Virus record (IMG/VR): IMGVR_UViG_3300033146_001875
Location: 1 to 63,733 of that record
Reading direction: 5' to 3' (one strand)
DNA length: 63,733 bases
Source of the DNA: a virus
Taxonomy: Duplodnaviria; Caudoviricetes
Below, piece by piece: positions 13,144-63,305 of the stretch. The stretch's first letter is position 1. The number at the start of each line of letters is the position of its first letter. The position numbers and the translations under genes were made by a program. Under the pieces are notes generated by a model. It saw only the letters and a program-made list of their open reading frames with translations. It was not told the origin of the DNA and made no database searches.

Positions 13144-14502
13144 ATGGAAAAAGAAAAACTGATATTAAAATCGTTGGCAGTTTCAGCACTACCTAGAAAA
13201 GTAGAAGATGGTTATGAAACATTTGTTTACACGGTTGAAAAATGGGGAAAGGAAAAAGATGATACATTAATATCGTCTTTTTCCAAAAGTAAAAAAGAAG
13301 ACGATGACGACACAGTTGTTGTTAGGGATAAGGACTTAGTAATGTTATCAGCTACAGACAAAGCTAACAATGGTGTATTCAGTGCATTGTATAGTGGAAT
13401 AGATGCATTGCATTCTTCTGTAGTTGCAGAGAGTCAAGATTTTATTTTATCTAAAATAAAATCTACTACAAAAGCTACAGCTGCAAAAGCTGTATTTACA
13501 GAAAGAGAGAAATATAAAAAGAAAATATTGGAAAAAAGCTGTTCTGGTATAGGACATCTGACAGAAAAGCAAGAACTTGCTTTAATGAAAGAAATTAAGA
13601 GAATGAATGCTTTATTTTCGGGATCTCTATCTAGTGATTCTGCTACTTCTGTTGATATTGATTTAATAGAGAGATATGCCTTTAGAAAAAACATAATGTT
13701 TTTAGGGCCAGCAGGTGTAGGTAAAACCTACATGTTGACAGAGTGGGCAGACAGTAGAGTTGCAGAAGATGGATATAAATATTACCATATAGATGGACAT
13801 GAGGGGTATGAAATATCTGATATGCTTGGTATGATGGTTCCTAATGAAACTAGTGGTATGTCATGGATAGATGGACCTTTGACACAAGCATTTAGAGATG
13901 CTTCTCGTGGTCACAAAACTATAATAATGATAGATGAAATATTAAGAATACCAGACAAGGAAAGAAGTATACTGATTGGGTCTCTAATTCCAAAAGCTGA
14001 CGGCATGTTATCTCTAAGAACCAACCGAATTAAAAGCTATGATGAAGACGGAGTTGGACAAACAGAAGAGATTAAATGTCTTCCTGAGAATCTATGGGTT
14101 GTAGCTGCTTCTAACATAGGTGTTGGTTATTCCGTAGAAGATATGGACACCGCTTTTCAAGATAGGTTCAGAGCTTTCAGAGTGGATGGAGGAGAGAAAT
14201 TAGCTAATTTAATATCTACTAAGATATGCAAAGAAAAAGGCTTCAGCAGCAATGTAACTAAGGCTATTGTTGAATTATTTAACAATTTTAATGAAATTAA
14301 ATTAAAAGGTAAATTTCAAAAGAATTTTTCCCCTCGTCACATATCTGAAGTATTAACATTGGCAGACACAGAACAAGAGATAGGATTGTATCTACAAGAC
14401 CTTACTTATACTTGCTTAAGCATAAACAGCTCAGGTGTAGTTAATGGCTCTGAACTTGAGATATGGGAGTCTTTAATAGAACCATTCACTGCTGAGGTGT
14501 AA
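13144..14502 (+). CDS. MoxR/CbbQ-type AAA+ ATPase
   Basis: Walker A GPAGVGKT, Walker B IMIDE, ASN, DRF, SPR. Confidence 0.92.
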   Translation: MEKEKLILKSLAVSALPRKVEDGYETFVYTVEKWGKEKDDTLISSFSKSKKEDDDDTVVVRDKDLVMLSATDKANNGVFSALYSGIDALHSSVVAESQDFILSKIKSTTKATAAKAVFTEREKYKKKILEKSCSGIGHLTEKQELALMKEIKRMNALFSGSLSSDSATSVDIDLIERYAFRKNIMFLGPAGVGKTYMLTEWADSRVAEDGYKYYHIDGHEGYEISDMLGMMVPNETSGMSWIDGPLTQAFRDASRGHKTIIMIDEILRIPDKERSILIGSLIPKADGMLSLRTNRIKSYDEDGVGQTEEIKCLPENLWVVAASNIGVGYSVEDMDTAFQDRFRAFRVDGGEKLANLISTKICKEKGFSSNVTKAIVELFNNFNEIKLKGKFQKNFSPRHISEVLTLADTEQEIGLYLQDLTYTCLSINSSGVVNGSELEIWESLIEPFTAEV

Positions 14503-14504
14503 TT

Positions 14505-15950
14505 ATGAAAAAAGAAAAAAAAATAGTTAAGAATTTTTTAGTAAAAAAGAAAGTAGTTGGACTGCTTGAGACTGATGGAATTTTCTTAAAATATGGCTCA
14601 ACTGGTCTTGGAGCAAATACAATGTTGTTTCAGGGCGATTCAGAACAGAATACACTATATAGAGGACATGACTCTGATAGTACGACATATTTTAGCTTGT
14701 CGGAAGAAGTGTTTGAGAAAGTAGATAAAAACACTTCTTCTGTACGAGATAATTTTGCTCACAAGAATATACTGTTTAATACCATGGTTGTAGCAAATCA
14801 TATTTTAGAAACAAGTATTTGTAAGGCATATTTTAAATACATAACAACTGATATATTATTGGTTCTAGTGCATAAAGAAGCTCCACAAATAGACTTTAGA
14901 AAAATAGACTATTTGTTAGAAGCTGGTAATCCAGTTCATGAATTTATTTCGTCGGATATATTATCTGACGAAATAAAAGAAATATATAGAATTATAGAAG
15001 ATATAAAGCACACTAGGGAGATTGACGAACCTGCTGGATATTCTGGTTGCGACTTCTTTAGTTATATTCCAGTTAAAAAAGGAGAAAAAACAGTAGCTAA
15101 AAGTAGCGAGTTGGCAGATTCGCTATCTAAACCTACTAGTGCAACAACAGATACTTCTGAAAAGGAAGATGATATAGAAACCATCTTAAGAGATACATTA
15201 GGGTCCATATCGACAAGCTATACAAACCCTAGTTATTCAGATGATAAAATGTGGTTTCGACATAAGAATACTTTGTCTAAAAAAGAGTATTTAAAAGTAG
15301 AACAGTATGCCAAGCAGATAGGTTCTAAGATGAAAGGTAGATTCGGTAAGGACAAAGTTTCATCACCCTCTAAGAAAATTCATACTAAGAATTTCATTAG
15401 AAGAGTACCTAATATATATGTAAAAAAAAGAGACATATCTAAGGGCAAGAAAATAAATTTGAATATTTTCATAGATGCCTCTGCTTCTATGAATGGAAAA
15501 CCTATGAAGAATGCAGTTTCTGTAGCACTGATATTTGAGATGATAGCTAACAAAGAAAAGACTATTACCGGAAACATAATATTGTCTGCTGGTGAGGGTT
15601 CCATGACTATAGAGTTTGGGAAAGGCAAGGAATCTCTATTAAACAAGCTTCAGGCTTTTAGTGGGGAAGAGGGCATTGAAAGAACCATCACTAACAATAT
15701 GAAAATTATGCAAAAAGCTGATTACAATATCTGTATTAGTGATGCAAACATAACCGATGACCCATTGAACAAAAAAAAATATGAAGCTAGAAATGTTTTT
15801 ATAGATGGTCTTTATATAAACAAAACAACATCTAGTAAAACAGAAAAAGAAAATACTGAACACATGGAAAAATATTTTTCGAGAGGTAAAGTTATAGATA
15901 CTTTAGAAAATGCCGTGGAATATATATCTAATGTTGTTTTGCAAAAATAA
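14505..15950 (+). CDS. VWA-domain protein (partner of the AAA ATPase)
   Basis: MIDAS motif IFIDASASM and downstream ISD; adjacent to a MoxR ATPase as in N4-like phages. Confidence 0.85.
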   Translation: MKKEKKIVKNFLVKKKVVGLLETDGIFLKYGSTGLGANTMLFQGDSEQNTLYRGHDSDSTTYFSLSEEVFEKVDKNTSSVRDNFAHKNILFNTMVVANHILETSICKAYFKYITTDILLVLVHKEAPQIDFRKIDYLLEAGNPVHEFISSDILSDEIKEIYRIIEDIKHTREIDEPAGYSGCDFFSYIPVKKGEKTVAKSSELADSLSKPTSATTDTSEKEDDIETILRDTLGSISTSYTNPSYSDDKMWFRHKNTLSKKEYLKVEQYAKQIGSKMKGRFGKDKVSSPSKKIHTKNFIRRVPNIYVKKRDISKGKKINLNIFIDASASMNGKPMKNAVSVALIFEMIANKEKTITGNIILSAGEGSMTIEFGKGKESLLNKLQAFSGEEGIERTITNNMKIMQKADYNICISDANITDDPLNKKKYEARNVFIDGLYINKTTSSKTEKENTEHMEKYFSRGKVIDTLENAVEYISNVVLQK

Positions 15951-17089: not shown

Positions 17090-17920
17090 ATGCAAGAAAA
17101 CAATAGAGATGACTATTATCCTGAGCTAGGCTATTATGGTGGCTCAGACCAGATACCAGAGGGCAACAGAAAAATAAGCCCATCTGGACTTTCTGGATTT
17201 TTTAACGATAGTGAAGAATGGTACAGAAGAAATATAGAAAAATCTGAAGTATTTAATGGCAATACCTCAACTGTATTAGGTACGGTGGTTCATCATATGG
17301 CTGAATGCTTTGAAAAAGGTATTGAATACCGAATTGAAAAGATAGAGGAATATTTAGATAGTTATGAGAGTAACATAGATGTGGATACAGAGCAAGTTCG
17401 TGCAGAATACAATGAAATGTATGAAGCACTTAAAAAAGAGTATCTAACGGCTCCTGCCACTAAAAAACCTATTGAGGTAGAACAGTTTATTCACTGCGAG
17501 CTGACGAAAGGTTATACAGTTGGTGGTTCTATAGATAGATTAGAACCACGAACTATTGTTGACTATAAGACTTGTTCTAAGAAACCGACTGGTATAAAAC
17601 CTTACAGACTACAGCTTTTAGTGTATGCTTGGATATACAGAAAAATAGGCTTAACCATAGACACTATCAAAGTAGTTGCAATTCAAAGAAGAACCAAAAC
17701 ACTTGAACCTAGAGTATGGATTATTGAAGACATTATAACTGATGAAGATATGCAAATGATTGAATATACGATGTTAATCATATCAAGATGTATTGATATT
17801 GTTCAGAATAACAATGAATATAAAGACCTTATATTTAGAGGTAATCCAATTGGTATGTTTAAGAAAGACAACACTAGAGTAGAGAGAGCTAATGACATCG
17901 GGTATTCAAACGGCTTTTAG
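17090..17920 (+). CDS. PD-(D/E)XK (Cas4/RecB-like) exonuclease, N4 gp42-like
   Basis: ISPSGL, GTVVH, GSIDRL, IVDYKT, QLLVYAW. Confidence 0.88.
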   Translation: MQENNRDDYYPELGYYGGSDQIPEGNRKISPSGLSGFFNDSEEWYRRNIEKSEVFNGNTSTVLGTVVHHMAECFEKGIEYRIEKIEEYLDSYESNIDVDTEQVRAEYNEMYEALKKEYLTAPATKKPIEVEQFIHCELTKGYTVGGSIDRLEPRTIVDYKTCSKKPTGIKPYRLQLLVYAWIYRKIGLTIDTIKVVAIQRRTKTLEPRVWIIEDIITDEDMQMIEYTMLIISRCIDIVQNNNEYKDLIFRGNPIGMFKKDNTRVERANDIGYSNGF

Positions 17921-18131
17921 CTATATAATAAATGTGAAAATAGGCAAAGAGGTTATGGTTGCTATATGGAACCATTGTAAACAAGATAATCATATTGTTA
18001 AATGCACTATAATTGGACATGAAGACAATATTTCTAGTAAAACAACTGATGTATTGGTTGAATACAAGAATGATGCTGGTGAGCATCGTAGGTGTATAAT
18101 AGAACCAATGAAAAAGGTGGTTGTTTTATAA
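17892..18131 (+). CDS. Hypothetical protein
   Basis: 79-aa ORF followed by a hairpin at about 18143-18185. Confidence 0.6.
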   Translation: MTSGIQTAFSYIINVKIGKEVMVAIWNHCKQDNHIVKCTIIGHEDNISSKTTDVLVEYKNDAGEHRRCIIEPMKKVVVL

Positions 18132-18323
18132 AAAGAATAACACAACCACTTACGAACCACCTTGGGGTGGATTCGCCGTGGTTGTTTAATGGAATGTGTA
18201 TTGAGGTATTATAAATGATATTTATAATATTTAAATATATTATTAAACGGAGTCGGGACCTACGACCGACAGTGGGGTAGGCTACTGAGCCAATGAACGG
18301 AGTGGAATTGGCGAGGTAGGTCT

Positions 18324-18407
18324 GTCTTTATTTATATAGTCTTTATTTACCTGCAGTCTATCACATGCAACCAGTTGCACCTCTACACCTGCAGCTAGTT
18401 GCACCTC
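18324..18407. promoter_or_regulatory. Iteron-like repeat array A (candidate replication origin or operator)
   Basis: 22-bp near-palindromic repeats at 18362-18383 and 18386-18407, a half copy at 18349-18356, and GTCTTTATTTA twice (18324-18334, 18339-18349). Confidence 0.7.
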
Positions 18408-18507
18408 AAAAAAGAAAAGAGAAAAGACTTAATAAAAAATCTATATTCAGTCAAGCTTCAAGAGAACAATGTTTTAATACAATTAAATAACACTAAAAGG
18501 TATATAA

Positions 18508-18912
18508 ATGGTAATTCACAACATTCGTCCAGATAGAAATTTCACACAATTAGATAACAATGTTTTAAGATTGAAGAATATTCATTCTGGTGTAAAAGTA
18601 TTGTATTGCTTTATTGCATCACTTAAAAATGGTCAACGAATATCGAGAGAATATTTGGCTAAGAGTCTGGGGGTAAGTGTAAGAACAATCTCCACACAAA
18701 TTGGAGAATTAGAAAAAAGAAATCTACTTTTAGTAGATAGAGTTTCTGCTAAAGAATATGACTGCTACATTGGTACAAGCAAGCTTCCAGCTAGCAAAAC
18801 AAAGGAATATTGGGTTGATATAGAGTCATTAACTGAAACGATAACCGATGAAGAGCTTTTGCAAATGCAAAAAGAATATATAGATAAAATAAATAAAATG
18901 GAGAACAAATGA
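18508..18912 (+). CDS. Winged-HTH protein resembling the N-terminal domain of phage replication initiators (paralog A)
   Basis: NFTQLDNNVLR...KVLYCFIAS...SREYLAKSLGVSVRTISTQIGELEKRNLL. Confidence 0.82.
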   Translation: MVIHNIRPDRNFTQLDNNVLRLKNIHSGVKVLYCFIASLKNGQRISREYLAKSLGVSVRTISTQIGELEKRNLLLVDRVSAKEYDCYIGTSKLPASKTKEYWVDIESLTETITDEELLQMQKEYIDKINKMENK

Positions 18913-20162
18913 CAGAACATCAACGAGAAAAGTTTGATAATATAATGAGTCACTCAGATAAGATAGTGGCCCTATTTGGAGAAGGTGGAACTGGTAAAAC
19001 AGTTTCAGTAAGTAAGTTTATTCAATCGCTTGATGAAAATCAGATAGTAGCTTTGACAACTACTACACACCAAAGTTTAAGTGTTCTTAGGGACATGGTT
19101 CCATCACATCATAAATGTGATATAACAACATCTACAATACATAAATTCTTAGGCTTTAGAGTCAAAGATAATCAAGGTAAATCTACATTGCAAAGAAATC
19201 CGAAGCATGAAATTAGCTTTGTGGACTATCTAATAATAGATGAATCATCTTATTTAACTAAGCAGTTATTAGACTTTATAAAAGGCTCAGAAGTTGGATT
19301 TAGAGTGCGAAAGAAAATTATATTGGTAGGCGACAAAATGCAACTAACTATAGATGATTTTCTAAACTTAGATTCTATTTTTAGTGAAGAACTAACAGAG
19401 AACATGAGACAGAGTCGTGACTCTGATTTATATACCTTTTGTCATAGTCTAAGACACAGAATAGAGAACAAATTAGGGGTAGTACCTATTCCAGCAAATG
19501 GTAAAGATATTATAATGACATCGAACCATACAGCTTTTGTTAGTGAATACAAAAAAAACACTTCTAATAAATGTATATTAGCTTTTCTCAACTCTACTGT
19601 TAAAAGCTATAACAACAATATAAAAAAGAAGATGTTGAAAGAAGATACATATAGTATTGGAGACACTCTTGTTGTGATGGAACCAACATTCAAGAAACTA
19701 GCTAATGGTAGTAATTCTATTATATACAACAACAGAGAGAGAGTAGAAATACTTGGAATAGTTCAGGAGACAGATAGTGATACATTATTACTTGTTAAAA
19801 ATTCAAAAGAAATAGAGGCACAATTACTAGTCCCTAAGTCTAAGGCAGAATACAATCGAACATTAAAAAACTATGTAGATAAAAAAGACTGGAAGAACTA
19901 TTATGATTACAAAGAAGCAAGAAATTTTGTACATCATTCTTATGCCCTCACAGTACACTCAGCACAAGGTTCTACATTTGATGATGTCTTTATCGACCTA
20001 AGTGATTTTAACCCTCCTAATGACCCTGTAAGTGACAAGTTACTAAGAATGGTATATGTAGCCTTAACAAGAGCTAGAAAGAGAGTTTTTATATATCTAG
20101 GAGATGGAAAAAGAGACTACCAAGCTTTTGGTAAGACGGTAAATCTATTGGATGAGATGTAG
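18909..20162 (+). CDS. SF1B (Dda/RecD-like) DNA helicase
   Basis: GEGGTGKT, IIDES, VGDKMQL, NMRQ, YALTVHSAQGSTFD, YVALTRA. Confidence 0.95.
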   Translation: MTEHQREKFDNIMSHSDKIVALFGEGGTGKTVSVSKFIQSLDENQIVALTTTTHQSLSVLRDMVPSHHKCDITTSTIHKFLGFRVKDNQGKSTLQRNPKHEISFVDYLIIDESSYLTKQLLDFIKGSEVGFRVRKKIILVGDKMQLTIDDFLNLDSIFSEELTENMRQSRDSDLYTFCHSLRHRIENKLGVVPIPANGKDIIMTSNHTAFVSEYKKNTSNKCILAFLNSTVKSYNNNIKKKMLKEDTYSIGDTLVVMEPTFKKLANGSNSIIYNNRERVEILGIVQETDSDTLLLVKNSKEIEAQLLVPKSKAEYNRTLKNYVDKKDWKNYYDYKEARNFVHHSYALTVHSAQGSTFDDVFIDLSDFNPPNDPVSDKLLRMVYVALTRARKRVFIYLGDGKRDYQAFGKTVNLLDEM

Positions 20163-20164
20163 AT

Positions 20165-20422
20165 ATGTATAGCAAAAAAAAAGACTCAACTATATTTGAT
20201 GATACTATGTTTCCAAGCCAGATAAGACAAGTAAGAAGCGATGGTTCTGTAAAGAGAGCTATTGAGTTACCTATGTCTAAAAAGGCTATTGATATGTATT
20301 CTGATAATTTAAAAAAAGACTTAGAGAATAATATGACATTTAAAAAGTTGAAAGAAGTGAAATTTATGAATAAAGCTTTGGATTTATTCGAACCAACTAA
20401 AATAACTATAACGGAGAATTAA
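20165..20422 (+). CDS. Hypothetical protein
   Basis: Only ORF between helicase and primase. Confidence 0.7.
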   Translation: MYSKKKDSTIFDDTMFPSQIRQVRSDGSVKRAIELPMSKKAIDMYSDNLKKDLENNMTFKKLKEVKFMNKALDLFEPTKITITEN

Positions 20423-20425
20423 ATT

Positions 20426-22648
20426 ATGTCTAAAATAAAACTAGATGACGACACGGAAGATATACCTATTGAATCCAAAGTGTCTGGAGAATTACATTAT
20501 ACTGATTTAGAGAATATGAAGTGGATGGATGTAATACTTAACATACTTAAAAATAAAGCTGGTTCTGAGCAAATGGACGACCATTTTTATGAAACACTTA
20601 TTAATAATAAAATAAGCCAAATAGCTACAAATATGAGAGTATGCTTTGAATTTTATGATGGTGGGATTATTCCAGCCAACATATATTCTTTTCTGCTAGC
20701 TACATCTGGCTCATCTAAAGGAAAGACTAACTCTACTTTGAAGAACTTGTTTTTCAAAGACTTTGAAGATAGTTTTATGACTATGCACCAAATAAGAGCC
20801 AAGCTCAATCTGGAACATATGGCAGAGGACAAATCAAGGCTAGAGGGTATGTCAGAAGAACAAGCATTAGACTATCTAACAAAAAGATTTAATTGCTTAC
20901 CTAACTTTATATTCACATATAATGATTCTACGGAGCCCGGATTTAAAGCCTTGAGAGAGAAGCTTACATTAAGTGGTTCAGGTGCCACAAATATAGAGCT
21001 TGATGAAATTGGCATTAATATGCATAAGATAAAAGAGTTTCTATCAGCAGTGCTTGAATGCTATGATGTTGGAGTCTTAAACCAAAAGCTAACCAAGACA
21101 GAATCTTCTAAGGATACAGCTAAAATACCAGCTACTTTCTTAGCTTTTGGCACTGGTTCTACATTGCTTGATGGTGGAGAGATGGAAAAAGATTTTATGA
21201 GCATTTTAAGACAAGGCTTAGCTAGGAGATGTACTTTTTCATATACTGAGAATATAAAAGATACTGAAGACGATGAAGAGTTTGACCCAATGAAAATATT
21301 ACTGAGAGCTAAGTCGTCTGAGGATTCAAAAGACTCTCTTAGAATAATGAATAAATTTAAACTACTATCAGAACCAAAACTGTTTGATAAAGTTATACTG
21401 GTTCCAGATGCCATATGGGCAAAAGTATTAGAATATCAAAGAGACTGCAATAAAGAAGTATCTAAGCTATCTGAGTTTGAAGATCTAGTTATGCTAAACA
21501 TAAAGCATTCTTACTGGACTTTATCTAAGATAATGTCAGTATATGCCTTTATGGATGGCAAAGATTATGTAGAACAGATACATTTTGATAGAGCATTAAA
21601 GTATGTAAAACATTCTATAATAGACTTCAAAAAGATGGTTCGTAGGAAATCTAATTTTGAAAGAGTTGCATTGTTTATATGTACAGCAAAAAGAGAATTA
21701 ACATTATTCGACTTTACGGAGTCTATGCCATTCTACAAAAATGCCACAAAGCAAAGCAAGATGGAAATGTTGGAATTAGCACAAGCTTATGCTGCCACAC
21801 ACAATATGCTTATACAGCATAAGATAAAGGAGGGTATTATATATTACACTGGTTCTATGCTAGAAGAAGTGGACTTAAATCAAATCAAGTTATCTATGTC
21901 ATCACATATAACTGAAAATTTTGTTCCTTTATCTGGAAAATGGGATGACTTGTATAATATTCCTTGTTCTAATACAAATTATTCTATTCATCATTTTATA
22001 GATAACTACAGAAAAGGTAGCAATGCTATTGCTGGGTTTAATATAGTTGTTTTAGATATAGATGATGGTACTGATTTAGATACAGCTAAGGCTATATTAA
22101 AAGAATCTAAGTATCTTATTACTACTACTCGAAATCACAATAAGGAGAAAAATGGCAAGATAAGAGATAGGTTTAGAATCTTTCTTCCAATGACAGTTGA
22201 ACTTAAACTGAATGAATTAGATTTTAAAGCTTTTATGACAAATGTTATGGAAGATTTTCCAATAGAAGTCGATGAAGCTTGTAAGGATATTGCAAGATTT
22301 TATTTCGGTCATGCTGGTGCAGATTATGCATATAATGATGGTTCTTTATTTGATCCAGCTGACTATATACCCAATACAGAACCGAATAAGAAGAGAATAA
22401 AATTCAATTCAGAACTTGGAGATATAGGCAGTTTGGAAAAATGGTTCTTAAAACGAATGGCAAGTGGAAACAGAAATGATATGCTTATTAAATTCGCTCT
22501 AGCTCTAGTTGATGCAGATAAAGAGTATGAAGAAATTGAATCTCGTTGTATGACATTAAATAGCAGGCTAGAAGATCCAATTTCTCAAAAAGAGATTTCA
22601 TCTACTATCTTATCTACGGTAAGAAAAAAACTATATGGAGGTAAATAA
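20426..22648 (+). CDS. N4 gp43-type DNA primase (N-terminal P-loop domain, C-terminal AEP and PriCT)
   Basis: ATSGSSKGKT; AEP motifs VLDIDDG, TTRNH, RFRIFLP, VDEACKD; PriCT GNRNDML. Confidence 0.88.
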   Translation: MSKIKLDDDTEDIPIESKVSGELHYTDLENMKWMDVILNILKNKAGSEQMDDHFYETLINNKISQIATNMRVCFEFYDGGIIPANIYSFLLATSGSSKGKTNSTLKNLFFKDFEDSFMTMHQIRAKLNLEHMAEDKSRLEGMSEEQALDYLTKRFNCLPNFIFTYNDSTEPGFKALREKLTLSGSGATNIELDEIGINMHKIKEFLSAVLECYDVGVLNQKLTKTESSKDTAKIPATFLAFGTGSTLLDGGEMEKDFMSILRQGLARRCTFSYTENIKDTEDDEEFDPMKILLRAKSSEDSKDSLRIMNKFKLLSEPKLFDKVILVPDAIWAKVLEYQRDCNKEVSKLSEFEDLVMLNIKHSYWTLSKIMSVYAFMDGKDYVEQIHFDRALKYVKHSIIDFKKMVRRKSNFERVALFICTAKRELTLFDFTESMPFYKNATKQSKMEMLELAQAYAATHNMLIQHKIKEGIIYYTGSMLEEVDLNQIKLSMSSHITENFVPLSGKWDDLYNIPCSNTNYSIHHFIDNYRKGSNAIAGFNIVVLDIDDGTDLDTAKAILKESKYLITTTRNHNKEKNGKIRDRFRIFLPMTVELKLNELDFKAFMTNVMEDFPIEVDEACKDIARFYFGHAGADYAYNDGSLFDPADYIPNTEPNKKRIKFNSELGDIGSLEKWFLKRMASGNRNDMLIKFALALVDADKEYEEIESRCMTLNSRLEDPISQKEISSTILSTVRKKLYGGK

Positions 22649-22650
22649 CT

Positions 22651-22908
22651 ATGTCTTTTAAAGACTTAAAAAGAGGTGACAAAGTTGAGATAAACTTTGA
22701 AGTTTGTGCTGAGAATGGATTTAACAACTTTAGTACATTTGACCTATCACAAGGTGTGGTAGTGTCTGAAAAAATAGAAATAAAATTCCATGGGCATAAA
22801 AATGAAGCGGCTGTCCACTTGAGGACTATTGCAGATAACAAAGATATATGTATATCTGAAAAAACTGGAATACTATATTCGTTTATTGAAGAAGAAATAA
22901 TTTTATAA
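22651..22908 (+). CDS. Hypothetical protein
   Basis: GGAGG RBS. Confidence 0.75.
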   Translation: MSFKDLKRGDKVEINFEVCAENGFNNFSTFDLSQGVVVSEKIEIKFHGHKNEAAVHLRTIADNKDICISEKTGILYSFIEEEIIL

Positions 22909-23016
22909 ATGAAAATCGTAGTTCAGAGAAGATGTTAAAGCTGCTTTTGCAATAACAGACAAAAAAAATTGCAATATAGTTATAGTGACCACTTAAAAAA
23001 AAACAAAAGGATAGAC

Positions 23017-23589
23017 ATGAACAAGAACACACCACAGACAATTAATGAAACGATGGATACATTTAAAATAGAACGCACACAAACTGCAATGGGTACACGA
23101 ATGACTCGTGGAGATTACAATGAATATAGAGGCTGGACATTACCTGATGGTGAGAATGGTGATGATAAGGGAGTGATGCTGGTTAATGGTGACCATGTGA
23201 GCTGGATACCTAAACCTGTATTTGAGAAAGAATGCTTATTGATTGAAGATAGACTTAATGGCAAGGAGCTTGACCCAGAAACAAGTATTCCAAAGAAAAC
23301 ACTTGGAAATACTTGTTCTAATAGAACAATAGAAAATGTTAGTGATGTTACATTCTGGGGTAATAGAGATACTTTTAAGTTAATTTCAAAAGCATCTTCA
23401 GAAAAAGAAGGTTGGATGAAATCTACTAAGGCTATGCAGTGTGGAAACTCAGTTGTTGTTCAGGTAACAACTCAACAAAGAAACCCTGATGGTAGTTATG
23501 CTGTAGCAGAAGCAGTGACGACAGTGCCAAATGCTGTAATTTCTAAGCACAAAGAAGATGGTAAAGTGATTTTTAGAACTATAGCTTAG
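23017..23589 (+). CDS. Two-domain protein; candidate anti-defence nucleotide sponge fusion
   Basis: N-domain MTRGDYNEYRGW...SWIPKPVFE; C-domain KASSEKEGWMKSTKAM...VQVTTQQ. AAGGA RBS favours ATG 23017. Confidence 0.6.
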   Translation: MNKNTPQTINETMDTFKIERTQTAMGTRMTRGDYNEYRGWTLPDGENGDDKGVMLVNGDHVSWIPKPVFEKECLLIEDRLNGKELDPETSIPKKTLGNTCSNRTIENVSDVTFWGNRDTFKLISKASSEKEGWMKSTKAMQCGNSVVVQVTTQQRNPDGSYAVAEAVTTVPNAVISKHKEDGKVIFRTIA

Positions 23590-23633
23590 TCTGCTTTTAA
23601 TGGAGACAGAGCAAAAAAAAATAAAGGTATACA

Positions 23634-24017
23634 ATGGTATCAATCAAAATCGAAAACTATAATGAGTTCGTACATGGACTGAAAAAGTCTGGTGAAAATA
23701 TCTTAGATAGTCTAAATCCAGAAAAATGTTCAATTATACATATGGCAATGGGTTTATCTGGCGAGTCAGGTGAGCTTCTTGATGCAATTAAAAAATACAC
23801 TATGTATGAAAAAGATATTGACCGTGAAAATATTGTGGAAGAGATGGGAGATATTGAGTTTTTTTTAGAGGGACTTCGTAGTGACCTAGGCATAATTAGA
23901 GAAGAAACTCTACAGCATAATATGGAAAAACTTATTTGTAGATACCCTGATGGTTTATTTACAAATGCTGATGCCCAAGAAAGAAAAGATAAGGAGGTAA
24001 AAATAAATGGCTCTTAA
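23634..24017 (+). CDS. MazG-like nucleotide pyrophosphohydrolase
   Basis: GLSGESGELLDAIKK...EEMGDI...NMEKLICRYP. Confidence 0.9.
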   Translation: MVSIKIENYNEFVHGLKKSGENILDSLNPEKCSIIHMAMGLSGESGELLDAIKKYTMYEKDIDRENIVEEMGDIEFFLEGLRSDLGIIREETLQHNMEKLICRYPDGLFTNADAQERKDKEVKINGS

Positions 24018-24693
24018 CATAAGACCAATAAAAGAAACTGTATCCGATAGTGGTGTAAAAATATTAGTATATGCTCAGTCTGGAACTGGAAAAACTAGCC
24101 TTGCTGGCACTTTTTCAGGAAGGACTCTTATACTAAATGCTGAGAATGGTACAGCGGTTATTAAAGATAGTAATTGCGATGTTATAGATACTCCGAATGA
24201 AGCTTCTATAATTGAAGTATATCAAGCTATTCTAAATGGTGAAATCAAGTATGACAATTATGTACTTGACTCCATTACTGAGATTGCAGAAAGCATGGCT
24301 CTAGCTTTAAAAGCTGACCCCTATTATGGTGACCCTAAAAATAGTTTTAAATTTTGGGATGAGCTAAAAAGAAAAATAGTAGTTATGATGAAAGCCTTTA
24401 GAGACCTTAAAAACTGCAATGTAATGTTCTGTGCATTAGAAGCAGATGTTGAAATTAATGCCCTACAAATACTGCATCCTATGGTGCCGGGCAAAAGCTC
24501 AATGAAGATACTACCATCCATATTTGATGAAGTATTAAGACTTACTTCTGATGCTGATGGTACTAGAAAGTTGCATACTTCAGGAAGAATGGACTATGTA
24601 GCTAAAACTCGTTATGGAATAGAGGATGGAACAACAGATGTTAATATAGCTAATCTATATCAAGAACATCTATATAGTTCTCAAACAAAATAA
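24007..24693 (+). CDS. Sak4-like AAA ATPase/recombinase (N4 gp44-like)
   Basis: YAQSGTGKT, VLDSITE, FDEV, AKTR; directly upstream of SSB. Confidence 0.88.
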   Translation: MALNIRPIKETVSDSGVKILVYAQSGTGKTSLAGTFSGRTLILNAENGTAVIKDSNCDVIDTPNEASIIEVYQAILNGEIKYDNYVLDSITEIAESMALALKADPYYGDPKNSFKFWDELKRKIVVMMKAFRDLKNCNVMFCALEADVEINALQILHPMVPGKSSMKILPSIFDEVLRLTSDADGTRKLHTSGRMDYVAKTRYGIEDGTTDVNIANLYQEHLYSSQTK

Positions 24694-24721
24694 TAATTAA
24701 AAAAAAACAAGGAAGAAAAAC

Positions 24722-25471
24722 ATGAGTCAATTTGATAATTTATTCGAGGGTACAGAAGAAGAGATTTTAGGACAAGACGAATTTAAAGGTTCGGGTATTA
24801 CTAAGTCATGTGTGGTTGTAGCTAAAATAACTATGGCTAAACAAAAAGACAGTGGTTCTAGTAACTCAAAAGCATTTGTTATTGAAATGGAAACCGAAAG
24901 TGGTGCTAAACTATTTCACGACTTTGGATGGTATATAAATAAGACTGGTAAGCATACAGACAAAAATGGTAAGATATTACCAGCTACAGCTGGTTTAGTT
25001 AGATTTAATGCTTTAATAAACAATGAGAGAGATTTACCTAAATTAGATTTAGCTGCAATAAAAGAATATGATTGGGAATCTAAATCAGAAGTATCTGTTC
25101 AAAAAATGATAGCTCGTTCCCTTATTGGTAAAATGGTACAGGTTCAAGTGGTTCGCATTAAAACAAACAAGCAAGTTGATTCAGGTGGAAAAACTCCAGA
25201 GGGCTATGCTATTTGGGTAGATGGTCCAGACGAGAAGTTCACCAATGAATGTAAAAGGTTTTATGATGCTATGACTGGTCAAACAATAGGTGAGAAACAG
25301 CTAGGAAAAGAAGCTGAGAAAATCAAAACAGATATTCAATATTGTGAAGAAAATCCAGTATTAGATAAATTCAAAGCAGTAGCTGCTATAACTGCCTCAC
25401 AAGCTCCATCAACAGCTACTCAAGGCTTTGGTGCACCAGCACAATCTACTCAAGGCTTTGGTGCTCAATAG
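24722..25471 (+). CDS. N4-type single-stranded DNA-binding protein (gp45-like)
   Basis: Position after the AAA ATPase, size, KIKEYDW-like and NE...FY...G.T..E patterns, low-complexity tail. Confidence 0.75.
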   Translation: MSQFDNLFEGTEEEILGQDEFKGSGITKSCVVVAKITMAKQKDSGSSNSKAFVIEMETESGAKLFHDFGWYINKTGKHTDKNGKILPATAGLVRFNALINNERDLPKLDLAAIKEYDWESKSEVSVQKMIARSLIGKMVQVQVVRIKTNKQVDSGGKTPEGYAIWVDGPDEKFTNECKRFYDAMTGQTIGEKQLGKEAEKIKTDIQYCEENPVLDKFKAVAAITASQAPSTATQGFGAPAQSTQGFGAQ

Positions 25472-25473
25472 CC

Positions 25474-25950
25474 ATGCTAATTAATATCAAGCTAGATAGT
25501 TGTATTCCAGAAGATAAAAAGCTTCTGGAATATATACTCAATGGAAATATAATTAGCACTGACGAACTGATTATAAAGGATGAACCATCTATTGTAGAGC
25601 CTATTGAAGAAAAACTAGAAGAGTCTAGTTTTGATATAAGAAAAGAAGCCTCTACAGAAAAAGAAGATGGTTCTAATGATTTTTTAAAAGCTGTTGACGA
25701 AAGAGAGATAGAAGAAGTCAAAAGTCTTACAAGACAAGATATAGTAGATATATTCGATAGTAATAAGAGGCTTACTTCAAACTTTTTTACCAAACTACAG
25801 ACTGGATTCTACGGTCATGAAAATGTACTAATAGAAGATATAAGATTCGTAGGTAGAAAGCCATTTAGATATACAGATGAGAATTGTATATTTAAAGTCA
25901 GAAGAGCATTACTTAAGTTGAAATCAGCTCCAAGAAGAATATCGGAATAA
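25474..25950 (+). CDS. Hypothetical protein
   Basis: 158-aa ORF in operon context. Confidence 0.7.
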   Translation: MLINIKLDSCIPEDKKLLEYILNGNIISTDELIIKDEPSIVEPIEEKLEESSFDIRKEASTEKEDGSNDFLKAVDEREIEEVKSLTRQDIVDIFDSNKRLTSNFFTKLQTGFYGHENVLIEDIRFVGRKPFRYTDENCIFKVRRALLKLKSAPRRISE

Positions 25951-25953
25951 TGT

Positions 25954-26217
25954 ATGTTTCTTAGAAGCATAGAAGACTGCTATAAAATACCAGCTTCAGC
26001 TCCGACTATGGATAAAGTAAAAAAGAGCAAATCAAAGAAGCTTATGAAGCTTGATGATATGTATTTTTTTATAGCTGAAACAAAAGAGATAACCAGAATA
26101 TATTCAGTTAATCTAGGCATTCAGGTATTAGCTGCATATCCTCGTTCTCATGCACTCAATATGCTAATAAAACGACTACATCATATCAAAGGTTTAGTTC
26201 ATGAAAAAAACTCGTAA
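25954..26217 (+). CDS. Hypothetical basic protein
   Basis: 87-aa ORF in operon context. Confidence 0.7.
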   Translation: MFLRSIEDCYKIPASAPTMDKVKKSKSKKLMKLDDMYFFIAETKEITRIYSVNLGIQVLAAYPRSHALNMLIKRLHHIKGLVHEKNS

Positions 26218-26800
26218 AGAGCAAGTATACGGCATTGATATAGGGCTTAGTGGAGGAATTAGTAATGGTTCTTCCGAAATAGCTATGCCCATATATAGTG
26301 TTATGATTAAAGAACCAGTTATGGTACAAGCTAAAGACAGTAAAGGCAAAAAGCAATATTACAAAAGTGGACCTAAGCAAGGTGAAGTAAAGATGAGAAT
26401 CAAAGCTGGAGCTAAGTTTAAAAAATACCTTGATATTAGCTACATATATAAGTCTTTCTTGAATGCAACAGTTGTGGTTCTTGAAGATATGGGAACTAGT
26501 GTCGGCAATACTGCACAAGCCACTAGAACCACAGCCTCTAATTTAGGAAAGCTTTTAGCTGCTGCTGAATTAGCAGGTTGTAAAGTACATCTAATAGCTG
26601 CTAATAAATGGAAGAAAGATTTGGGATTATCTTCTGACAAATTAGAATCGGTTATTATGGCTGAAGAATTAACTGGACGAGTGTTTAGAACAGATAAAGG
26701 AGCCTTATTAGATGGCGAAGCAGAGGCATTTCTAATATGGCATTGGTATTCACTGTATGGTGAAGAATATTTTAAAACAAAAAAACAAGGAATAAAATGA
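26201..26800 (+). CDS. RuvC-like Holliday junction resolvase
   Basis: YGIDIGLSGG, VVVLED, WKK, DGEAEAFLI. Confidence 0.85.
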   Translation: MKKTRKEQVYGIDIGLSGGISNGSSEIAMPIYSVMIKEPVMVQAKDSKGKKQYYKSGPKQGEVKMRIKAGAKFKKYLDISYIYKSFLNATVVVLEDMGTSVGNTAQATRTTASNLGKLLAAAELAGCKVHLIAANKWKKDLGLSSDKLESVIMAEELTGRVFRTDKGALLDGEAEAFLIWHWYSLYGEEYFKTKKQGIK

Positions 26801-27451: not shown

Positions 27452-27665
27452 AAATATAGCCTTATCTATATTATCAGTTCTAGGACTGATAATTATAGTT
27501 GTAGTCGGACTGATAACATCCTATATGATTTCAGCTTTATTAGCTGTATCTATATTTTTTTATATAATATATAAAATATATTCTCATGCAGAACCAACGA
27601 AAAAAAAGCAAAAAAAGAATGAAATTAAATATTCTATTGATGCTGATTACAGAAGTGTATATTAA
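27387..27665 (+). CDS. Membrane protein, last gene of the + arm
   Basis: Two hydrophobic segments; its stop overlaps the vRNAP stop (TTAA). Confidence 0.7.
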   Translation: MKNHNQLLLDLLKIIYMLDKAKNIALSILSVLGLIIIVVVGLITSYMISALLAVSIFFYIIYKIYSHAEPTKKKQKKNEIKYSIDADYRSVY

Positions 27666-30600
27666 TACACTTCTGTTATATGTGGCACTATTAGTGTTTC
27701 AGCCATATCTAATGGCCCAAATACTCTATTAAAGAAACCACCAACTATACCATTATCATCATATGTATCAAATTGGTCAACACCTCTTGTGTTTACTAAT
27801 GTTTTGTAAGCAATGACAGACGACGGGTTAGCTATTAACATTCTTGCAACAACTCCCATATTCTTTAGGAAGAATTGCATAAAAAGAACCAACGATAAAT
27901 TCTCCATAGTCGTGAAAGCCTGTGCTTTCAAAGTGTTATACATAACAAAAGCTTGAGCAACTACCCTTGCAGATTGCTTAGCAGGCATACCAGATTTTCT
28001 TAAATGCTTATCTAGCGAATATCTAGCAGAAGCATCCCCAGCCTGATTAAGAGTAAGCAATACTTCAAACAATTTGGTATCTGAAGTTACATACATATTC
28101 TTGATTATTTCATGCAATACTTTTATGCCTCTGACACCAGACTTATTCATAGCTATATCTACTATCTTGTTTATATCATTCTTTGATGTCATGCTATCCC
28201 TATTTACATCCTCTACAACAGACGAAATTAAACCTTTTTTATACAGTCCGTACAATGGATTATCTTCAACAAGAGACTGAAGTTGCTTCAACTCTTTCTC
28301 TACTTTATCTCCTTGAACCTTTCTTATTTCAAGCTCTCTTATGTCATCTAATTGATGTCTTAATTCCCATAAATATTTAAACCCTTGAACCATATCTTTA
28401 CTAGCTGTTATTGGATCCACCCCTCTCATCACTAATGATATGTAGTTAGATTTAATATTACCCCATATAACACCCGTGTTAACAACTGCAACCAATGGTT
28501 TAAATAACTTAACCAATGAACGAAGAAAGCTTTCAACTATTTGTAACCCTTTGTAGAATTTAGGCTTGGTTCTTTTTAAACTAGATTTAGCCTCTGCAAA
28601 ACTAAAGTTTTTATAACCAAAAAAGTCACTCAGTAATTCAGGTCTAATATAAAATTCTTTAACACCATTTTCTTTTAATACTCTTTTAGTGTATTCAGGT
28701 AGCTTATTCCACTGGTCTTTAGTTCTAGGATTATATGGACTTATTTGAATGAAATTCTCTTTATCGGAAGCATCTTTATATTCATTTAAAGCCCACTCTA
28801 TAAACATATTATTGCTTTCTTCACCAGTTATCTTAGCAGATGAAGAAACGATAGTAGCCGCTATTCTCTCAACTACATCTTTATTTTCTCTCAGTAGATT
28901 CTCTTTCAAGCTAGTTGACATAGTGTATCTATAGTCAGTTATCTTAGCTCTCTTACCCTCTATGCTAATCAAAGGAACAGGTTCAGAACCTGTGAATGGA
29001 TCTGCTTCCAAGTCGAATTTTTCATTAGTTATATCATCTATCATTCCTTGAATTTCATGAGTTCCTATATGCTCACTATCTTCATGAAACTCTTTCATAG
29101 AAGTACCTTTGTGTCTAAGGTTTGTTATCTCTATAACACCTTTACTATATGGGGCACTGTAGTCATGCTTAGTAACAAGAACTCTATCCATATCTATATC
29201 ATCATGGTCATTAACTTTAATATCATAATCTATAAACTTCCAGCCTTGCTCAACATACATATCTAAGTCCGCTAGTCTGATTACTTTCACTTCCATATTT
29301 TCATCGGTAACCATCTTAGTATAGCCCTTTTGCTTATATACTTTCTGAGAACCTGCGAAAGATTTTCTATCGTTATCTCTAGTCATTTCTTTAAAAAAAG
29401 TAAGCATTTTGTTTACAGCTCTAAAGTCTTTAGATAGGTTTACATTATTTTCTTCTTTCGCCATTCTGAGTGCATACAAACTAACAAGCTTATTTAGGTT
29501 TATGTTAATACCTTTTATTCTATCTATCTTACTGAGCTCGTCACTATTTAAGAATAGTCCATTAGATATATTATGGGTATTTAACATCTGTCTTTTGATA
29601 CCAGTTTTACCATGAACCATAAACTGTGCAAGACCTTTTGCTTGTAGCATTACCATTTTACTGAATCTTCTCTGTCTTCTATTTGTAACCTTGTCACTGA
29701 TAGAATTTTCAAGAGTCTTAATAAGAGTGTTTAAATGCTTGTCATCATTCAGTAAGCTATGTATCTCTTTAGAGTCAGTGGTTACAGCCATTATATCAGT
29801 CTCTATAAGAAGCTTTTGTAATTTAATTCTATCCTCTTTATTAAAAGCTTTTAGTTGCTTAGTAAGCACTCTAACTATACTAGATTTAGTATGCTCTTTA
29901 TCATCCTCTTGTATCTTTTTAGCCTTGTTTAGCATGTCATAGAATGTATTATATCTGTCGTCGTAAGCAGTATCTGTAACTATCATATGGTTCACTTCAA
30001 CAAAGAACTTAGCTAAAGCTTGAGTCTTGCTATTTGAAGCTCTTATATAAGCAGAAGCTAATAGATTATTCATGCCTTGTGGGAATGCTTGTTTTGCTTT
30101 AATTGCAAATTCCAATTTAAGTTGTCTTAGCTTAGTGGCAAGAGGCTTATTTATCTTTTTGTGAAATGTATTATAGATATTATCCGTATCGCCTCTTTTG
30201 AGTTTAATAGTCATTTCTTGTGCTTTATTTTTTATTTGAATAAGCTCTGCTCCAACAGTGTTTCTGCCAAGTCTTTTTTCTGCTGCTTTGTTTATAACAC
30301 GAACAATAAAATTGAACATTCTAATAAACAAACCTTTTATCTTGCCATCAGATAACTTAAGCTCTCTGAGTAATCTGTTATCTACCTCAAACTCATGTTC
30401 ATTGTCTTGAATATATTTAAATAGAGTTGGGTCTGTTAAAGCATAGGTAAAAAATTCATTAGCTTTTTTATCAAAGAATATATATTTGAAGAGAGCTTTA
30501 GAAAGCTCTTGTTGCTCAACAGAACCATCTTTAGCAAATATAAGTTCTGGATTATCTAAATTTTTTACCATATGATTATATACAGCCATCTTAAGTCTGT

Positions 30601-33600
30601 TTAATCTAAGCATTATTTTCTTATCGTAGTTAAGTGCTGCTTGTGTAGATATGTGAAACATCTCGTGAGAGAACACACTCTTTCTGCTTTGTCCAATAAA
30701 TCTTGTACTACCAGTTAATCTAACTTTATTGTTAAATGTATCTGCTTGACCATAAGTGGGTTCGTTTTCTGTTTCGAATAATTGAACATCTACACTGTCA
30801 GTGAAGTCAAATACTGTATCTAATGTCTCTTCAAGTAACATATCTAAGTCGGCTGTATAATCATCATCGAAAGAACCATCTAACTCTTTATCTTCTTCTA
30901 TTAGCTCACCAACAAAGCTTCTTACATTTTCTCTAGTAACCTGTTTAGATGATATGTATTCACTTTCTGTATCCGTAGTGTTTGAAGAGAATGACCAGCC
31001 GTTTCCAAAATCAATAGCATGTCTTTCAACACTTTCATTATTAAACACATTTCTAAATCTTTCTAACAACTCTAAATTTGACTCAGTAGCAACGAACAAC
31101 TCTTTAGTTTTTTCATTCATAATATACAAACCACTTGGTTTGCCCGTTTTAGCATCTGCTGGAAAGCTTACAAGTTTAGCATCTTCATCTGCATCTAATA
31201 CCTGTTTAACGACACGAACAATATCGCTATCACTTGCTGTTTCAAGGATAGTAAATACATTGCTCTTGTCGTCTTTTCCAGCAATAAATCCTGCATGTTT
31301 CTCTTCTGTGTTTTCATCAGCTGGTTCTTCTATCTGATTTTCTTCATTTTCTTGAGTATCATACTGTTTATCAAGATAAGCTGCTCTTGAGTCTAAGAAC
31401 TCTTTGCTTTCTGGAAACAATATTCCAATCACAGCTAATCTAAACAGCTCTGCATTATTTTTATATTCTTTAATTGGAATCCTCTTTCCAATATTGTCTT
31501 TTATGCTATCTAATACATCTTTAGTTAATTTGCTTTTATCTATTTGGAATATACTACTAATTATTGTTTTTAATTGAGTTCCAGATTTAAAACTATCTAA
31601 TGAAGCTTGAACACTAGCTGTATCTGGTATGGTCTGCTCTTCACTAACTGTATCTGTAGTGGTTCCAATGCCATTTGTATCCTTTTCCTTGAGTTTTGTG
31701 TTGGGTTGTCTTCTTAAGTCTTTGTTCTCTAGTTTAATTAATGTGTAAGTAACATTTTCTAAATCTAGGTCTTTGGGTTTTTTAGCTACAGCTTTTAGCT
31801 TCTCCTGAATAACATTAACAAAAGTATCGTTTGAGCCGTCTACTTCCTCAAGTAATTGGTTAGCCGTAACTGTTTCCACAACATATTTCTCTGTAGTCGT
31901 GCTATCGTTATTATAGCTTTCTACAAACTCTATAATCCTTCTTAAAGTCTCTCCCTCCCCTGACTTGTTGTATGGTGTATTCGCATTTGTTTCGTTATCT
32001 AACACGATAGAAGAACCATCGTCTAAAATATTTTGAATTGTACCGCCAATAAATGCATTTATCTTTTCAATATTGCTATTTTTCCAATATCCATTTTCAC
32101 CACCATTAGTAGATATAAATACTATAGACTTATTTTCCATTCCGTGTTCTTTTGTATTCTCTATATCTCTTCTATAAGCTGCTTCTGTATCATTTTCAAT
32201 ACTCTCGTAGAAACTCTCATATTTAGCTGTACTTGAATACTGACTATTCTTTCCACCAGCTAGCCCTATAAAATGTGTAGATACATATAATTTTATTAAG
32301 TCTTTATTTACAAATGGTATTTTATTACTACCGAAACTATCAAATAGTTTAGAAATATATTGAAGACCCATAGTTACCCTGTGTTGGTTCTCTTTGTCGT
32401 ATTCATCACTAACAACATGTCTAATTTCTTGTCCTACATTTTTAAAATTCTCATTAGCTGTTTCAGTATCTTCAGTATCTTCAAGAATGGTAAAGCCATA
32501 TTCTTTTTTATCTGCATCCAATTTATTTGTTACTTCTGTATAAGATAAATTCTCTTTTTCAGATAAACTATCTGAAGCATAACTATGATTGGATACGATA
32601 GTTTCTTCAGACATTTTTTGTTTATTCTTTTTTATTTCTTTTATATTCTCAATAGTATCTTCAAGGGATAAAGCATCTTCATTAGCTTTACCCAATATAT
32701 ATTCTAATCCAGAATAGCTAGTTAGCTTTTGAAGAGATATTTCTAAATTCTCTTTAGCGAACTTAAGTTGAGAGTCTAATATAGCATCAGCATCCACACC
32801 AATACTTTCAAGATAAGCTATTTGTTTGACAATAGACTCTATATGCTCATTAGAAGCACTGTAATTCATTGGCACATGAATAGTCTCTCTATTATATGCT
32901 TGCTGAGTCTCTGTAATGCTGTTTTTATCCATTCCATATACTTTGGCATCGAATACATCTATTACATTACCATCTCTACCAACTACTTGAATAGTATAAC
33001 TATCTTGCTGTAATGTTGACGAAACAGATGTGGCAGATATATTTTGTACCATGGTTCTCTCATTAGCATTTGTGCTTTGGTTAACTGTCTTTCCGTTGCT
33101 ACTTTTGAATTTATTTTTAATAAGGTTATTTTGGTCTGGATTTTTTTCATCCGTATAATATGACAACTGTTCCTTATGCTCTGGGTCTGGAGATTTTATA
33201 CTATATAGTACACCAGCTTCTATAAGCTTCTTGAAGACATCTTTATACTGTTTCTCTGTCAATACACCATTATTCTCTTCCGTGGCTTTCTGCAAGCTCT
33301 GAGTGATAATTTCTCTAGTATTAGAAAACAATATACCATTAAGTAATTTAAGTCTATTTCTGTTTTCGTGTATAGGCTGATATAACTCTTGTACGGTGTC
33401 CCAAATAACCCTGCCGAATGTCCTATTAGAGTGCTCCTCCAACTTAGCTTCTGTGGCTTTAGAATATATAAATTTATTAGCTTTTGTGTTATATACAAGA
33501 TGAGCTAATAAAACTCTTCTAAACATTTCATTACTTGCTTCGTCTATTTTCTCATTTCCTCTTGAAGCTTCAAAAATATTTATATCTTTTGATAAAGCTG

Positions 33601-50647: not shown

Positions 50648-50660
50648 ATTATATTGTCCA

Positions 50661-51062
50661 TTATTTGTTGCTTGATACCATAGATTGATATAAGTCTGAT
50701 ATTTCATCATTAGCAATAATGTCTGGTGCTTTCTCCAGCATACCAGAAGAGAACATAACACCCCAAGCATTTAGTTGTGTTTTAAACAGCTCTATGTTTG
50801 TGTGGTCGTTAAAGCCCTCTTTCTGTCTAACCAACATAGCTGCATGAGCTATATCAACTTCTTTAGCAGATTTCAGCTTGTTCTCTTGTGCTATATTCAC
50901 ATCTGCTTGAGCAGCAGATTGCAATATAACAGACATCAAAGAAGAATATACTGTAGCATAATCAGTACCCTTGATTCTTCCTTTTGTAGCTTGTTCGTCT
51001 AAATCAGTTTTTACCTTAGCTGACAAAACATCATACAGTTGAGTTATATTATCTATATTCAT
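50661..51062 (-). CDS. Short N4 gp54-like tail protein
   Basis: KGRIKGTDYATVY and RQKEGF...AW patterns. Confidence 0.6.
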   Translation of the reverse strand: MNIDNITQLYDVLSAKVKTDLDEQATKGRIKGTDYATVYSSLMSVILQSAAQADVNIAQENKLKSAKEVDIAHAAMLVRQKEGFNDHTNIELFKTQLNAWGVMFSSGMLEKAPDIIANDEISDLYQSMVSSNK

Positions 51063-62881: not shown

Positions 62882-63217
62882 CTACTGCTCAACTCTTTCT
62901 AAATCATCCCAATGCTTTTTTACTTCAGAAGCTTTAAAAGAACTGTTCCCTATATATAAAAAATAAGTTGAACGATCTATTTTCTCAACAAGTAATAAAC
63001 CAGCTTCTATTAAGTCTCTTTTAGCTCTAGCAACCTTGTCTCTTTGCCAACCTAAACAAGTAGCTACATATTCGTCATTTAGCTGAAATCCATTTTTGTA
63101 TCCAGCTACAAAACAATAATATCTAAAGCTGTAGTCTTTTATTTCCTTATTCCTTGCAACATTATTGTCTATCTTACTATACTTTGAATTAGCAAGAACC
63201 TTTCTTAAAATAGCCAT
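62882..63217 (-). CDS. Winged-HTH protein, paralog B of 18508-18912
   Basis: Aligns end to end with paralog A (DNNV.R, YCF.A..KNG, EY.A..LG, LLLV, YIG.S...AS..K..W); AGGGG RBS; TGGTACAAT at 63247-63255. Confidence 0.85.
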   Translation of the reverse strand: MAILRKVLANSKYSKIDNNVARNKEIKDYSFRYYCFVAGYKNGFQLNDEYVATCLGWQRDKVARAKRDLIEAGLLLVEKIDRSTYFLYIGNSSFKASEVKKHWDDLERVEQ

Positions 63218-63305
63218 TATAACCCCTATATTAAATTTATTCGCATATTGTACCACAAAACAGAACCATGTCAATAATATATATACCAAACCCCTAAAAG
63301 ACTGA

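Follow-up and report, generated by a model that had tools for sequence, protein, structure and literature searches.

An N4-like phage genome that lacks a recognisable DNA polymerase gene

The IMG/VR virus record IMGVR_UViG_3300033146_001875 (Caudoviricetes) was analysed over its whole stretch of 63,733 nt, hereafter the window, and is a phage genome of the N4 type in which a recognisable DNA polymerase gene is absent. The retained replication set comprises a helicase-primase, a superfamily 1 (SF1) helicase, a protein that binds single-stranded DNA (SSB), a Sak4-like ATPase, an exonuclease and also a resolvase. Only the DNA-making enzyme is missing. In Escherichia phage G7C (NC_015933), a member of the Schitoviridae, this enzyme is the family A polymerase gp39. 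According to the available text of Wittmann et al. (PMC7650795), gp39 is among 17 proteins conserved across the proposed family Schitoviridae, and a polymerase was found in every near-complete relative tested, in agreement with the initial annotation of this DNA, which had called gp39 a core N4-like gene.

Search for a DNA polymerase and completeness of the genome

Stop-to-stop frames of at least 70 aa from all six reading frames (30 handled as open reading frames (ORFs) and 124 as a batch) were compared with Pfam-A at E <= 0.01, and 0 of the 154 matched a DNA polymerase family. The batch of 124 matched 21 Pfam families, none of them a DNA polymerase, Prim-Pol or reverse transcriptase family. 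A tblastn search of the window with G7C gp39 gave a best E value of 0.71, inside the virion RNA polymerase gene, and phmmer with gp39 against the 800 frames of at least 30 aa gave no match at E <= 0.01. When the same 800 frames were searched by hmmsearch --max (unfiltered) with a profile of the G7C, PT15-A5 and AD45-P1 polymerases, the best E value was 1.3. No gp39 remnant or truncated ORF was detected down to frames of 30 aa. On the strand that is transcribed in each arm, ORFs of at least 60 aa account for 92% of the window; the largest gap that they leave measures 542 nt, so that no room remains for an uncalled polymerase gene. The initial annotation had stated that no ORF shows motifs of a family A, B or C polymerase and had named a six-frame hidden Markov model search as a check; that search, together with tblastn, phmmer and the profile, is uniformly negative, unassigned ORFs included. 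The absence of a recognisable DNA polymerase gene from this genome is thus confirmed.

In a six-frame control with PF00476, the polymerase was found in G7C (E 4.4e-41), AD45-P1 (6.3e-35) and PT15-A5 (1.2e-38). A terminase-based scan of IMG/VR yielded 65 N4-like loci, and 16 among the 17 largest records were tested with PF00476. The family was present in 14 of these 16, including 11 of 11 rated at least 90% complete; the two records that lack it have completeness ratings of 77% and 36%. The former (G007, 57,961 nt; L055, L076, L077) was considered as a second polymerase-less case and rejected. It encodes a gp43-type primase, has no match to PF00476 or to an SF1 helicase, and has a layout unlike that of G7C; its replication block is followed by opposite-strand genes. 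It is read as a fragment because the SF1 helicase is missing and the replication block stops some 6 kb short of the end of the contig. In the phage collection, a gp43-type primase occurs in 478 records and an N4-type polymerase (E <= 1e-40) in 469, with identical tallies for the ten commonest host genera and an overall difference of 9 records. In AD45-P1 the primase is a distant one (E 8e-17), and the phage encodes a 616-aa family A polymerase of its own; four sister records of AD45-P1 may account for more of the 9-record gap. No report of an N4-like phage without a DNA polymerase was found in open-access PMC or bioRxiv text, supplements excepted.

The following features define the ends and the family assignment of the genome.

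1-114 (right copy 63620-63733; no strand): terminal direct repeat, 100% identity at a spacing of 63619, from a repeat search
27662-40249, minus strand: virion RNA polymerase, 4195 aa, the N4 hallmark (phrog_2206 'virion RNA polymerase', E 8.6e-121)

The 114-nt repeat, identical at the two ends, is an argument that the assembly is closed and complete, and the G+C content is about 32% over the whole length and 0.32-0.34 across 16-28 kb. The rightward arm (1-27,665) contains the early and replication genes, and the leftward arm (27,662-63,325) opens with the 4195-aa ORF, followed by capsid, portal, tail and terminase genes. By its profile match, the 4195-aa ORF is assigned as the giant virion RNA polymerase of the gp50 type, a trait of the Schitoviridae. 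It is about 450 aa longer than G7C gp50 (3748 aa); Pfam gives no domain in it, and the phrog_2206 match consists of two stretches, the best-scoring of which is the last 1100 residues. The virion RNA polymerase, the two transcription arms and the end repeat uphold the earlier description of the window as a complete N4-like genome.

The G7C proteins were compared with the 800 frames by phmmer at E <= 0.01. Matches were obtained for the replication proteins gp37 (8.7e-31), gp43 (1.5e-119) and gp45 (2.3e-5) and for the virion proteins gp56 (2.6e-16), gp57 (2.2e-7), gp59 (3.2e-77), gp68 (2.3e-142) and gp69 (1.5e-35). The gp44 counterpart was matched at the family level only (PF13479, phrog_124). 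Among the same frames, gp24, gp25, gp42, gp52, gp54 and gp67, which also belong to the 17 conserved proteins, gave no match at that threshold; functional counterparts were seen for gp24 (AAA_5), gp25 (a VWA lead) and gp42 (PD-(D/E)XK). The primase of the window is only about 32% identical to any primase among 50,697 phage records, which argues for an N4-like phage, but one on a deep branch.

The replication arm, the helicase-primase and other large genes

The replication arm carries the genes and repeats below, all on the plus strand apart from the repeats.

13144-14502, plus strand: AAA+ ATPase, gp24-like (PF07728 AAA_5, E 1.7e-11)
17090-17920, plus strand: PD-(D/E)XK exonuclease, function as gp42 (PF12705, E 2.4e-12; phrog_1218 'exonuclease', E 2.5e-15)
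18362-18407, no strand: two 22-nt direct repeats with a 24-nt period, from a repeat search, about 100 nt upstream of the next gene
18508-18912, plus strand: winged helix-turn-helix (wHTH) protein, 134 aa, initiator-like (PF13730 HTH_36, E 5.3e-10)
18909-20162, plus strand: SF1 Dda/RecD-like helicase, gp37 homologue (phrog_325, E 4.5e-70; phmmer match to gp37 as above)
20165-20422, plus strand: 85-aa ORF between helicase and primase (no match in Pfam, PHROGs or NCBIfam)
20426-22648, plus strand: gp43-type primase, 740 aa (phrog_2135, E 7.4e-176; PriCT_1, E 6.9e-8)
22969-23589, plus strand: 206-aa ORF (phrog_872, function not named in PHROGs, E 1.8e-5)
23634-24017, plus strand: MazG-like pyrophosphatase, function as gp36 (PF03819, E 7.5e-7; phrog_229, E 2.8e-33)
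24007-24693, plus strand: Sak4-like (annealing-type) ATPase, function as gp44 (PF13479, E 6.4e-24; phrog_124, E 2.3e-39)
24722-25471, plus strand: N4-type SSB, gp45 homologue (phrog_743, E 2.9e-16; phmmer match to gp45 as above)
26201-26800, plus strand: Holliday-junction resolvase (phrog_1770, E 2e-8)

The exonuclease, helicase, primase, Sak4-like ATPase, SSB and resolvase named in the initial annotation were all recovered at their places by Pfam and PHROG matches. Its remark that the 85-aa ORF alone lies between the helicase (stop at 20162) and the primase (start at 20426) is likewise correct, the spacers being 2-3 nt. In G7C the order is MazG gp36, helicase gp37, gp38, polymerase gp39, gp40, gp41, exonuclease gp42, primase gp43, gp44 and SSB gp45; in the window, by comparison, the exonuclease precedes the helicase and MazG follows the primase. 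These several differences in gene order argue for an old divergence and not for a fresh deletion.

The 740-aa primase is of the N4 dns/gp43 type, with an N-terminal MCM-like AAA+ helicase of superfamily 6 (SF6) and a C-terminal archaeo-eukaryotic primase (AEP) domain followed by PriCT-1. A profile search retrieved 310 representatives at E <= 1e-30, and residue conservation was read over 82 aligned sequences. Invariant or near-invariant positions are S94, G95 and K98 of Walker A, D193-E194 and R267-R268, and, in the C-terminal part, D544, D546, T568, R584 and D616; all of them are kept in the window protein. D544 and D546 are kept in at least 90% of the 82 sequences and D616 is invariant, and these three residues are, in our own reading of the alignment, AEP motifs I and III. 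The AlphaFold2 model of the protein has a mean predicted local distance difference test (pLDDT) score of 91.4, and all Foldseek matches listed are MCM chains (best E 8.3e-6, template modelling (TM) score about 0.3 over the whole chain). The MCM-like ATPase spans roughly residues 30-460, and AEP plus PriCT-1 lie within 518-740, where phrog_695 'DNA polymerase/primase' matches residues 518-736 and PriCT_1 residues 674-734. A search of PDB sequences with the primase profile gave no match. In the available text of Kazlauskas et al. (PMC4889955), N4 dns is an essential helicase of the SF6 class (MCM-like, DUF3987) whose AEP domain has an unusual, C-terminal position. The helicase-AEP architecture is therefore already known, and it is common to polymerase-bearing relatives.

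The closest relatives of the primase (P0002-P0007) are 55-58% identical to it, and P0002, P0003, P0006 and P0007 lie on contigs of 20 kb, 11.5 kb, 6 kb and 5.6 kb. Neither the primase nor its 7-sequence alignment retrieved related loci from viral, metagenome or genome contig collections. Among 48 smaller IMG/VR records, a primase match was found in 3, and none was more than 32% identical to that of the window. P0005 (1049 aa) has an insert of about 310 aa exactly inside Walker A, which begins with C and is followed by SGKG; this insert probably represents an intein located in the helicase domain's ATPase site.

The stop of the 134-aa wHTH gene overlaps the start of the SF1 helicase gene, and the two are predicted to be translationally coupled. 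Its PHROG matches are phrog_678 'replication initiation O-like' (E 1.2e-7) and phrog_186 'DnaD-like helicase loader' (E 1e-5). The direct repeats at 18362-18407 are preceded at 18324-18349 by two copies of GTCTTTATTTA. The wHTH gene with these repeats occupies the place of gp38-gp39 in relatives. A second wHTH gene is located at the far end of the other arm.

62882-63325, minus strand: second wHTH protein, paralogue of that at 18508-18912 (BLASTP, 32% identity, E 2e-20; phrog_186, E 7.3e-6)

Three 22-nt repeats are present at 63303-63371, at the 5′ end of the second wHTH gene. Both repeat sites have a period of 23-24 nt, and the repeat sequences differ between the sites. The HTH_36 and initiator-like PHROG matches of the wHTH proteins are modest; the associated repeats may be iterons or origins, and they could equally be operators.

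Two large ORFs outside the core of the replication arm were considered as the missing polymerase and rejected.

2290-4128, plus strand: single-chain T7-like RNA polymerase, 612 aa, counterpart of N4 RNAPII gp15 + gp16 (motifs and fold)
14505-15950, plus strand: VWA/CobT-like protein, 481 aa, gp25-like (nearest ESM Atlas clusters VWA/CobT_C, score 0.96)

The 612-aa ORF was rejected as a DNA polymerase by its motifs and fold. Its family has no Pfam domain, and the consensus carries SDSRGRAI, IDATAS, RxxxKKAxTPxLYGSS and IHDAF, which we take to be motifs of single-subunit RNA polymerases. The Foldseek PDB matches listed for the AlphaFold2 model (mean pLDDT 91.5) are all RNA polymerases of mitochondria or of T7 (best E 1.2e-13), and a PDB sequence search with the protein gave no match. 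The ORF is assigned as the middle RNA polymerase, fused instead of split. In the phage collection, matches were restricted to the Alteromonas AD45 phages, in which the annotation divides the homologous region (L002, 2980-4880) into three separate hypothetical genes and places a gene for a GIY-YIG nuclease just downstream. A 2013 paper on these phages reportedly found no extra RNA polymerase in them, a statement that the present match would call into question. A search of viral contigs with the RNA polymerase homologue P0015 found no related loci. The 481-aa ORF stands directly after the AAA_5 ATPase, as gp25 stands after gp24 in G7C, and has no match in Pfam or PHROGs and no tblastn match in phages; its VWA/CobT-like character is a lead and not a proof, and it was rejected as a polymerase on this VWA-like lead. 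The 206-aa ORF was likewise rejected as a polymerase. Its Atlas leads (feature score 0.75, TM 0.47) are weak and include Tad2-like, Sequestin and Lockin families; it may be an anti-defence signal sponge, on evidence too weak for a call. An NCBIfam scan of 10 ORFs gave nothing useful; a match to a beta-lactamase family was rejected as noise (19.5 bits against a cut-off of 600).

The large terminase subunit (59135-61798, minus strand) has 887 aa, compared with 534 aa in G7C. Residues 2-173 and 173-507 of the G7C terminase align to residues 23-192 and 532-857 of the window protein, so that about 339 aa are inserted. A match to LAGLIDADG_3 falls within the insert (residues 415-465), whose last two residues are HN and which is followed by T. 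The insert probably represents an intein that carries a homing endonuclease.

Explanations for the missing polymerase

The favoured explanation, at roughly even probability, is that the window is a natural and complete genome from a deeply diverged podophage of the N4 type, which has lost gp39 and would leave bulk DNA synthesis to the host replicative polymerase. We infer each step of this scheme that involves an origin or a host enzyme. Origin recognition would possibly fall to the wHTH protein whose gene lies just upstream of that of the SF1 helicase, the phage helicase-primase would unwind and prime the phage DNA, and the host replicative polymerase would then carry out bulk synthesis. According to the available text of PMC4889955, a virus that encodes a replicative helicase may have no polymerase and then likely depends on that of the host, and viral helicases are proposed to act as a hub that recruits missing parts of the replisome. 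Recruitment of the host polymerase is ranked first on this ground. Several points weigh against this scheme. It is based on one genome, represented by one uncultured contig. The only homologue of the wHTH protein in the phage database belongs to Alteromonas phage PT15-A5 (Schitoviridae), a polymerase-bearing phage, so the wHTH genes do not explain the loss of the polymerase. No element that would bind the host polymerase was identified; a simple regular expression for clamp-binding-like pentapeptides found none in 16 replication-arm proteins, which is weak evidence either way. Bacterial Pol III normally couples to DnaB, and an MCM-like helicase is not its natural partner; recruitment would therefore need an additional adaptor.

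An assembly artefact, in which the true phage has a polymerase and the contig is a chimera or a collapse that skips it, or else a helper-dependent deletion variant, is considered unlikely. The genome is represented by a single contig, and its 63.6 kb (second repeat copy excluded) fall below the 66-77 kb of single-length IMG/VR relatives rated at least 90% complete. On the other hand, the end repeat is exact, the G+C content is uniform, and the replication arm is filled throughout by intact, closely spaced open frames with no remnant of gp39; a single skipped segment would not yield several differences in gene order from G7C. That the polymerase is present and belongs to an undescribed family is highly improbable. 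Candidates for it would be the large virion-arm proteins of 796 aa (40279-42669), which has no match in Pfam, PHROGs or NCBIfam, and 702 aa (48662-50770), whose sole match is one PHROG without a named function, or a set of small replication-arm proteins. The 796-aa gene follows the virion RNA polymerase gene and the 702-aa gene follows the portal gene. Both thus belong to the late arm of virion proteins, at places that structural or lysis genes occupy in G7C, and this position argues for structural roles; the replication-arm ORFs without assignment do not exceed 206 aa each.

It is also quite improbable that the dns/gp43-type protein is itself the replicase, with the AEP domain extending its own primers with deoxynucleotides, so that the MCM-like helicase and AEP form a one-protein replisome core comparable to NrS-1 polymerase. 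The acidic residues D544, D546 and D616 are kept in a protein fused to a helicase domain, the 'DNA polymerase/primase' profile phrog_695 covers its C-terminal part, and no other polymerase is present in the window. AEP PrimPols are described as replicating some phages and mobile elements in the text seen of PMC7102993, PMC8718748 and PMC11724360. However, other N4-like phages have this protein, with identical invariant residues, alongside the family A polymerase, and a replicase role is without specific support. The initial annotation had offered both use of the host replisome and the AEP enzyme as a primase-polymerase in the manner of NrS-1, and its interpretation is partly supported. The window protein has no extra domain (740 aa, compared with the usual 700-730) and no clade-specific change was seen, and the literature covered contains no account of an AEP enzyme that copies 64 kb processively. 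The full takeover, in which the dns-type protein serves as a self-contained helicase-primase-polymerase and a 64-kb lytic genome needs neither a classical phage polymerase nor that of the host, is very unlikely. If it were true, 64 kb would be, to our knowledge, the largest genome copied by an AEP enzyme.

Comparison with known systems

If loss of gp39 and use of the host polymerase are true, DNA synthesis can be returned to the host even by a large and strictly lytic phage that encodes its own machinery for transcription. The window would then offer a natural system for the coupling of an MCM-like phage helicase to a bacterial polymerase, or for the replacement of such a polymerase by AEP, and it would call for care with tools in which the polymerase serves as a marker or enters the estimate of completeness for N4-like phages. 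A single uncultured contig limits the weight of these implications.

The window shares with the Schitoviridae G7C and N4 the giant virion RNA polymerase, the T7-like middle RNA polymerase and two divergent arms, as well as the gp37-type helicase, dns/gp43, the gp44-type ATPase, the gp45-type SSB, gp56, gp57, gp59, gp68 and gp69. It differs from them in having no match to gp38, gp39, gp40 or gp41 and a rearranged replication block, in encoding RNAPII as one 612-aa chain instead of gp15 + gp16, and in the presence of a wHTH gene and direct repeats adjoining the helicase.

Phages with a helicase and a primase but no polymerase are common, and the alpha protein of coliphage P4 is an example of such equipment. 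The window resembles the class of helicase- and primase-bearing phages and satellites without a polymerase outlined in the available part of PMC4889955, as it has its own helicase, primase and candidate origin-binding protein. In contrast to that class, it sits in a family whose tested near-complete members all carry a polymerase, its helicase is of the SF6 MCM-like type with a C-terminal AEP domain, and its dependence on the host is presumed.

With the NrS-1 polymerase, as presented in the text seen of PMC7102993 and PMC8718748, the window has in common a fusion of AEP and helicase in a phage without a classical polymerase. The Prim/Pol domain is N-terminal in NrS-1, whereas the window protein has the reversed order, with the helicase N-terminal and AEP C-terminal, and the helicase type differs. 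The difference in domain layout noted in the initial annotation is thus borne out by the fold search and by the available text of PMC4889955. Unlike NrS-1 polymerase, the members of the N4 dns family other than that of the window coexist with a family A polymerase. We know of no polymerase activity in the N4 dns family. What is new here is the polymerase-less state inside a family that is partly defined by its polymerase.

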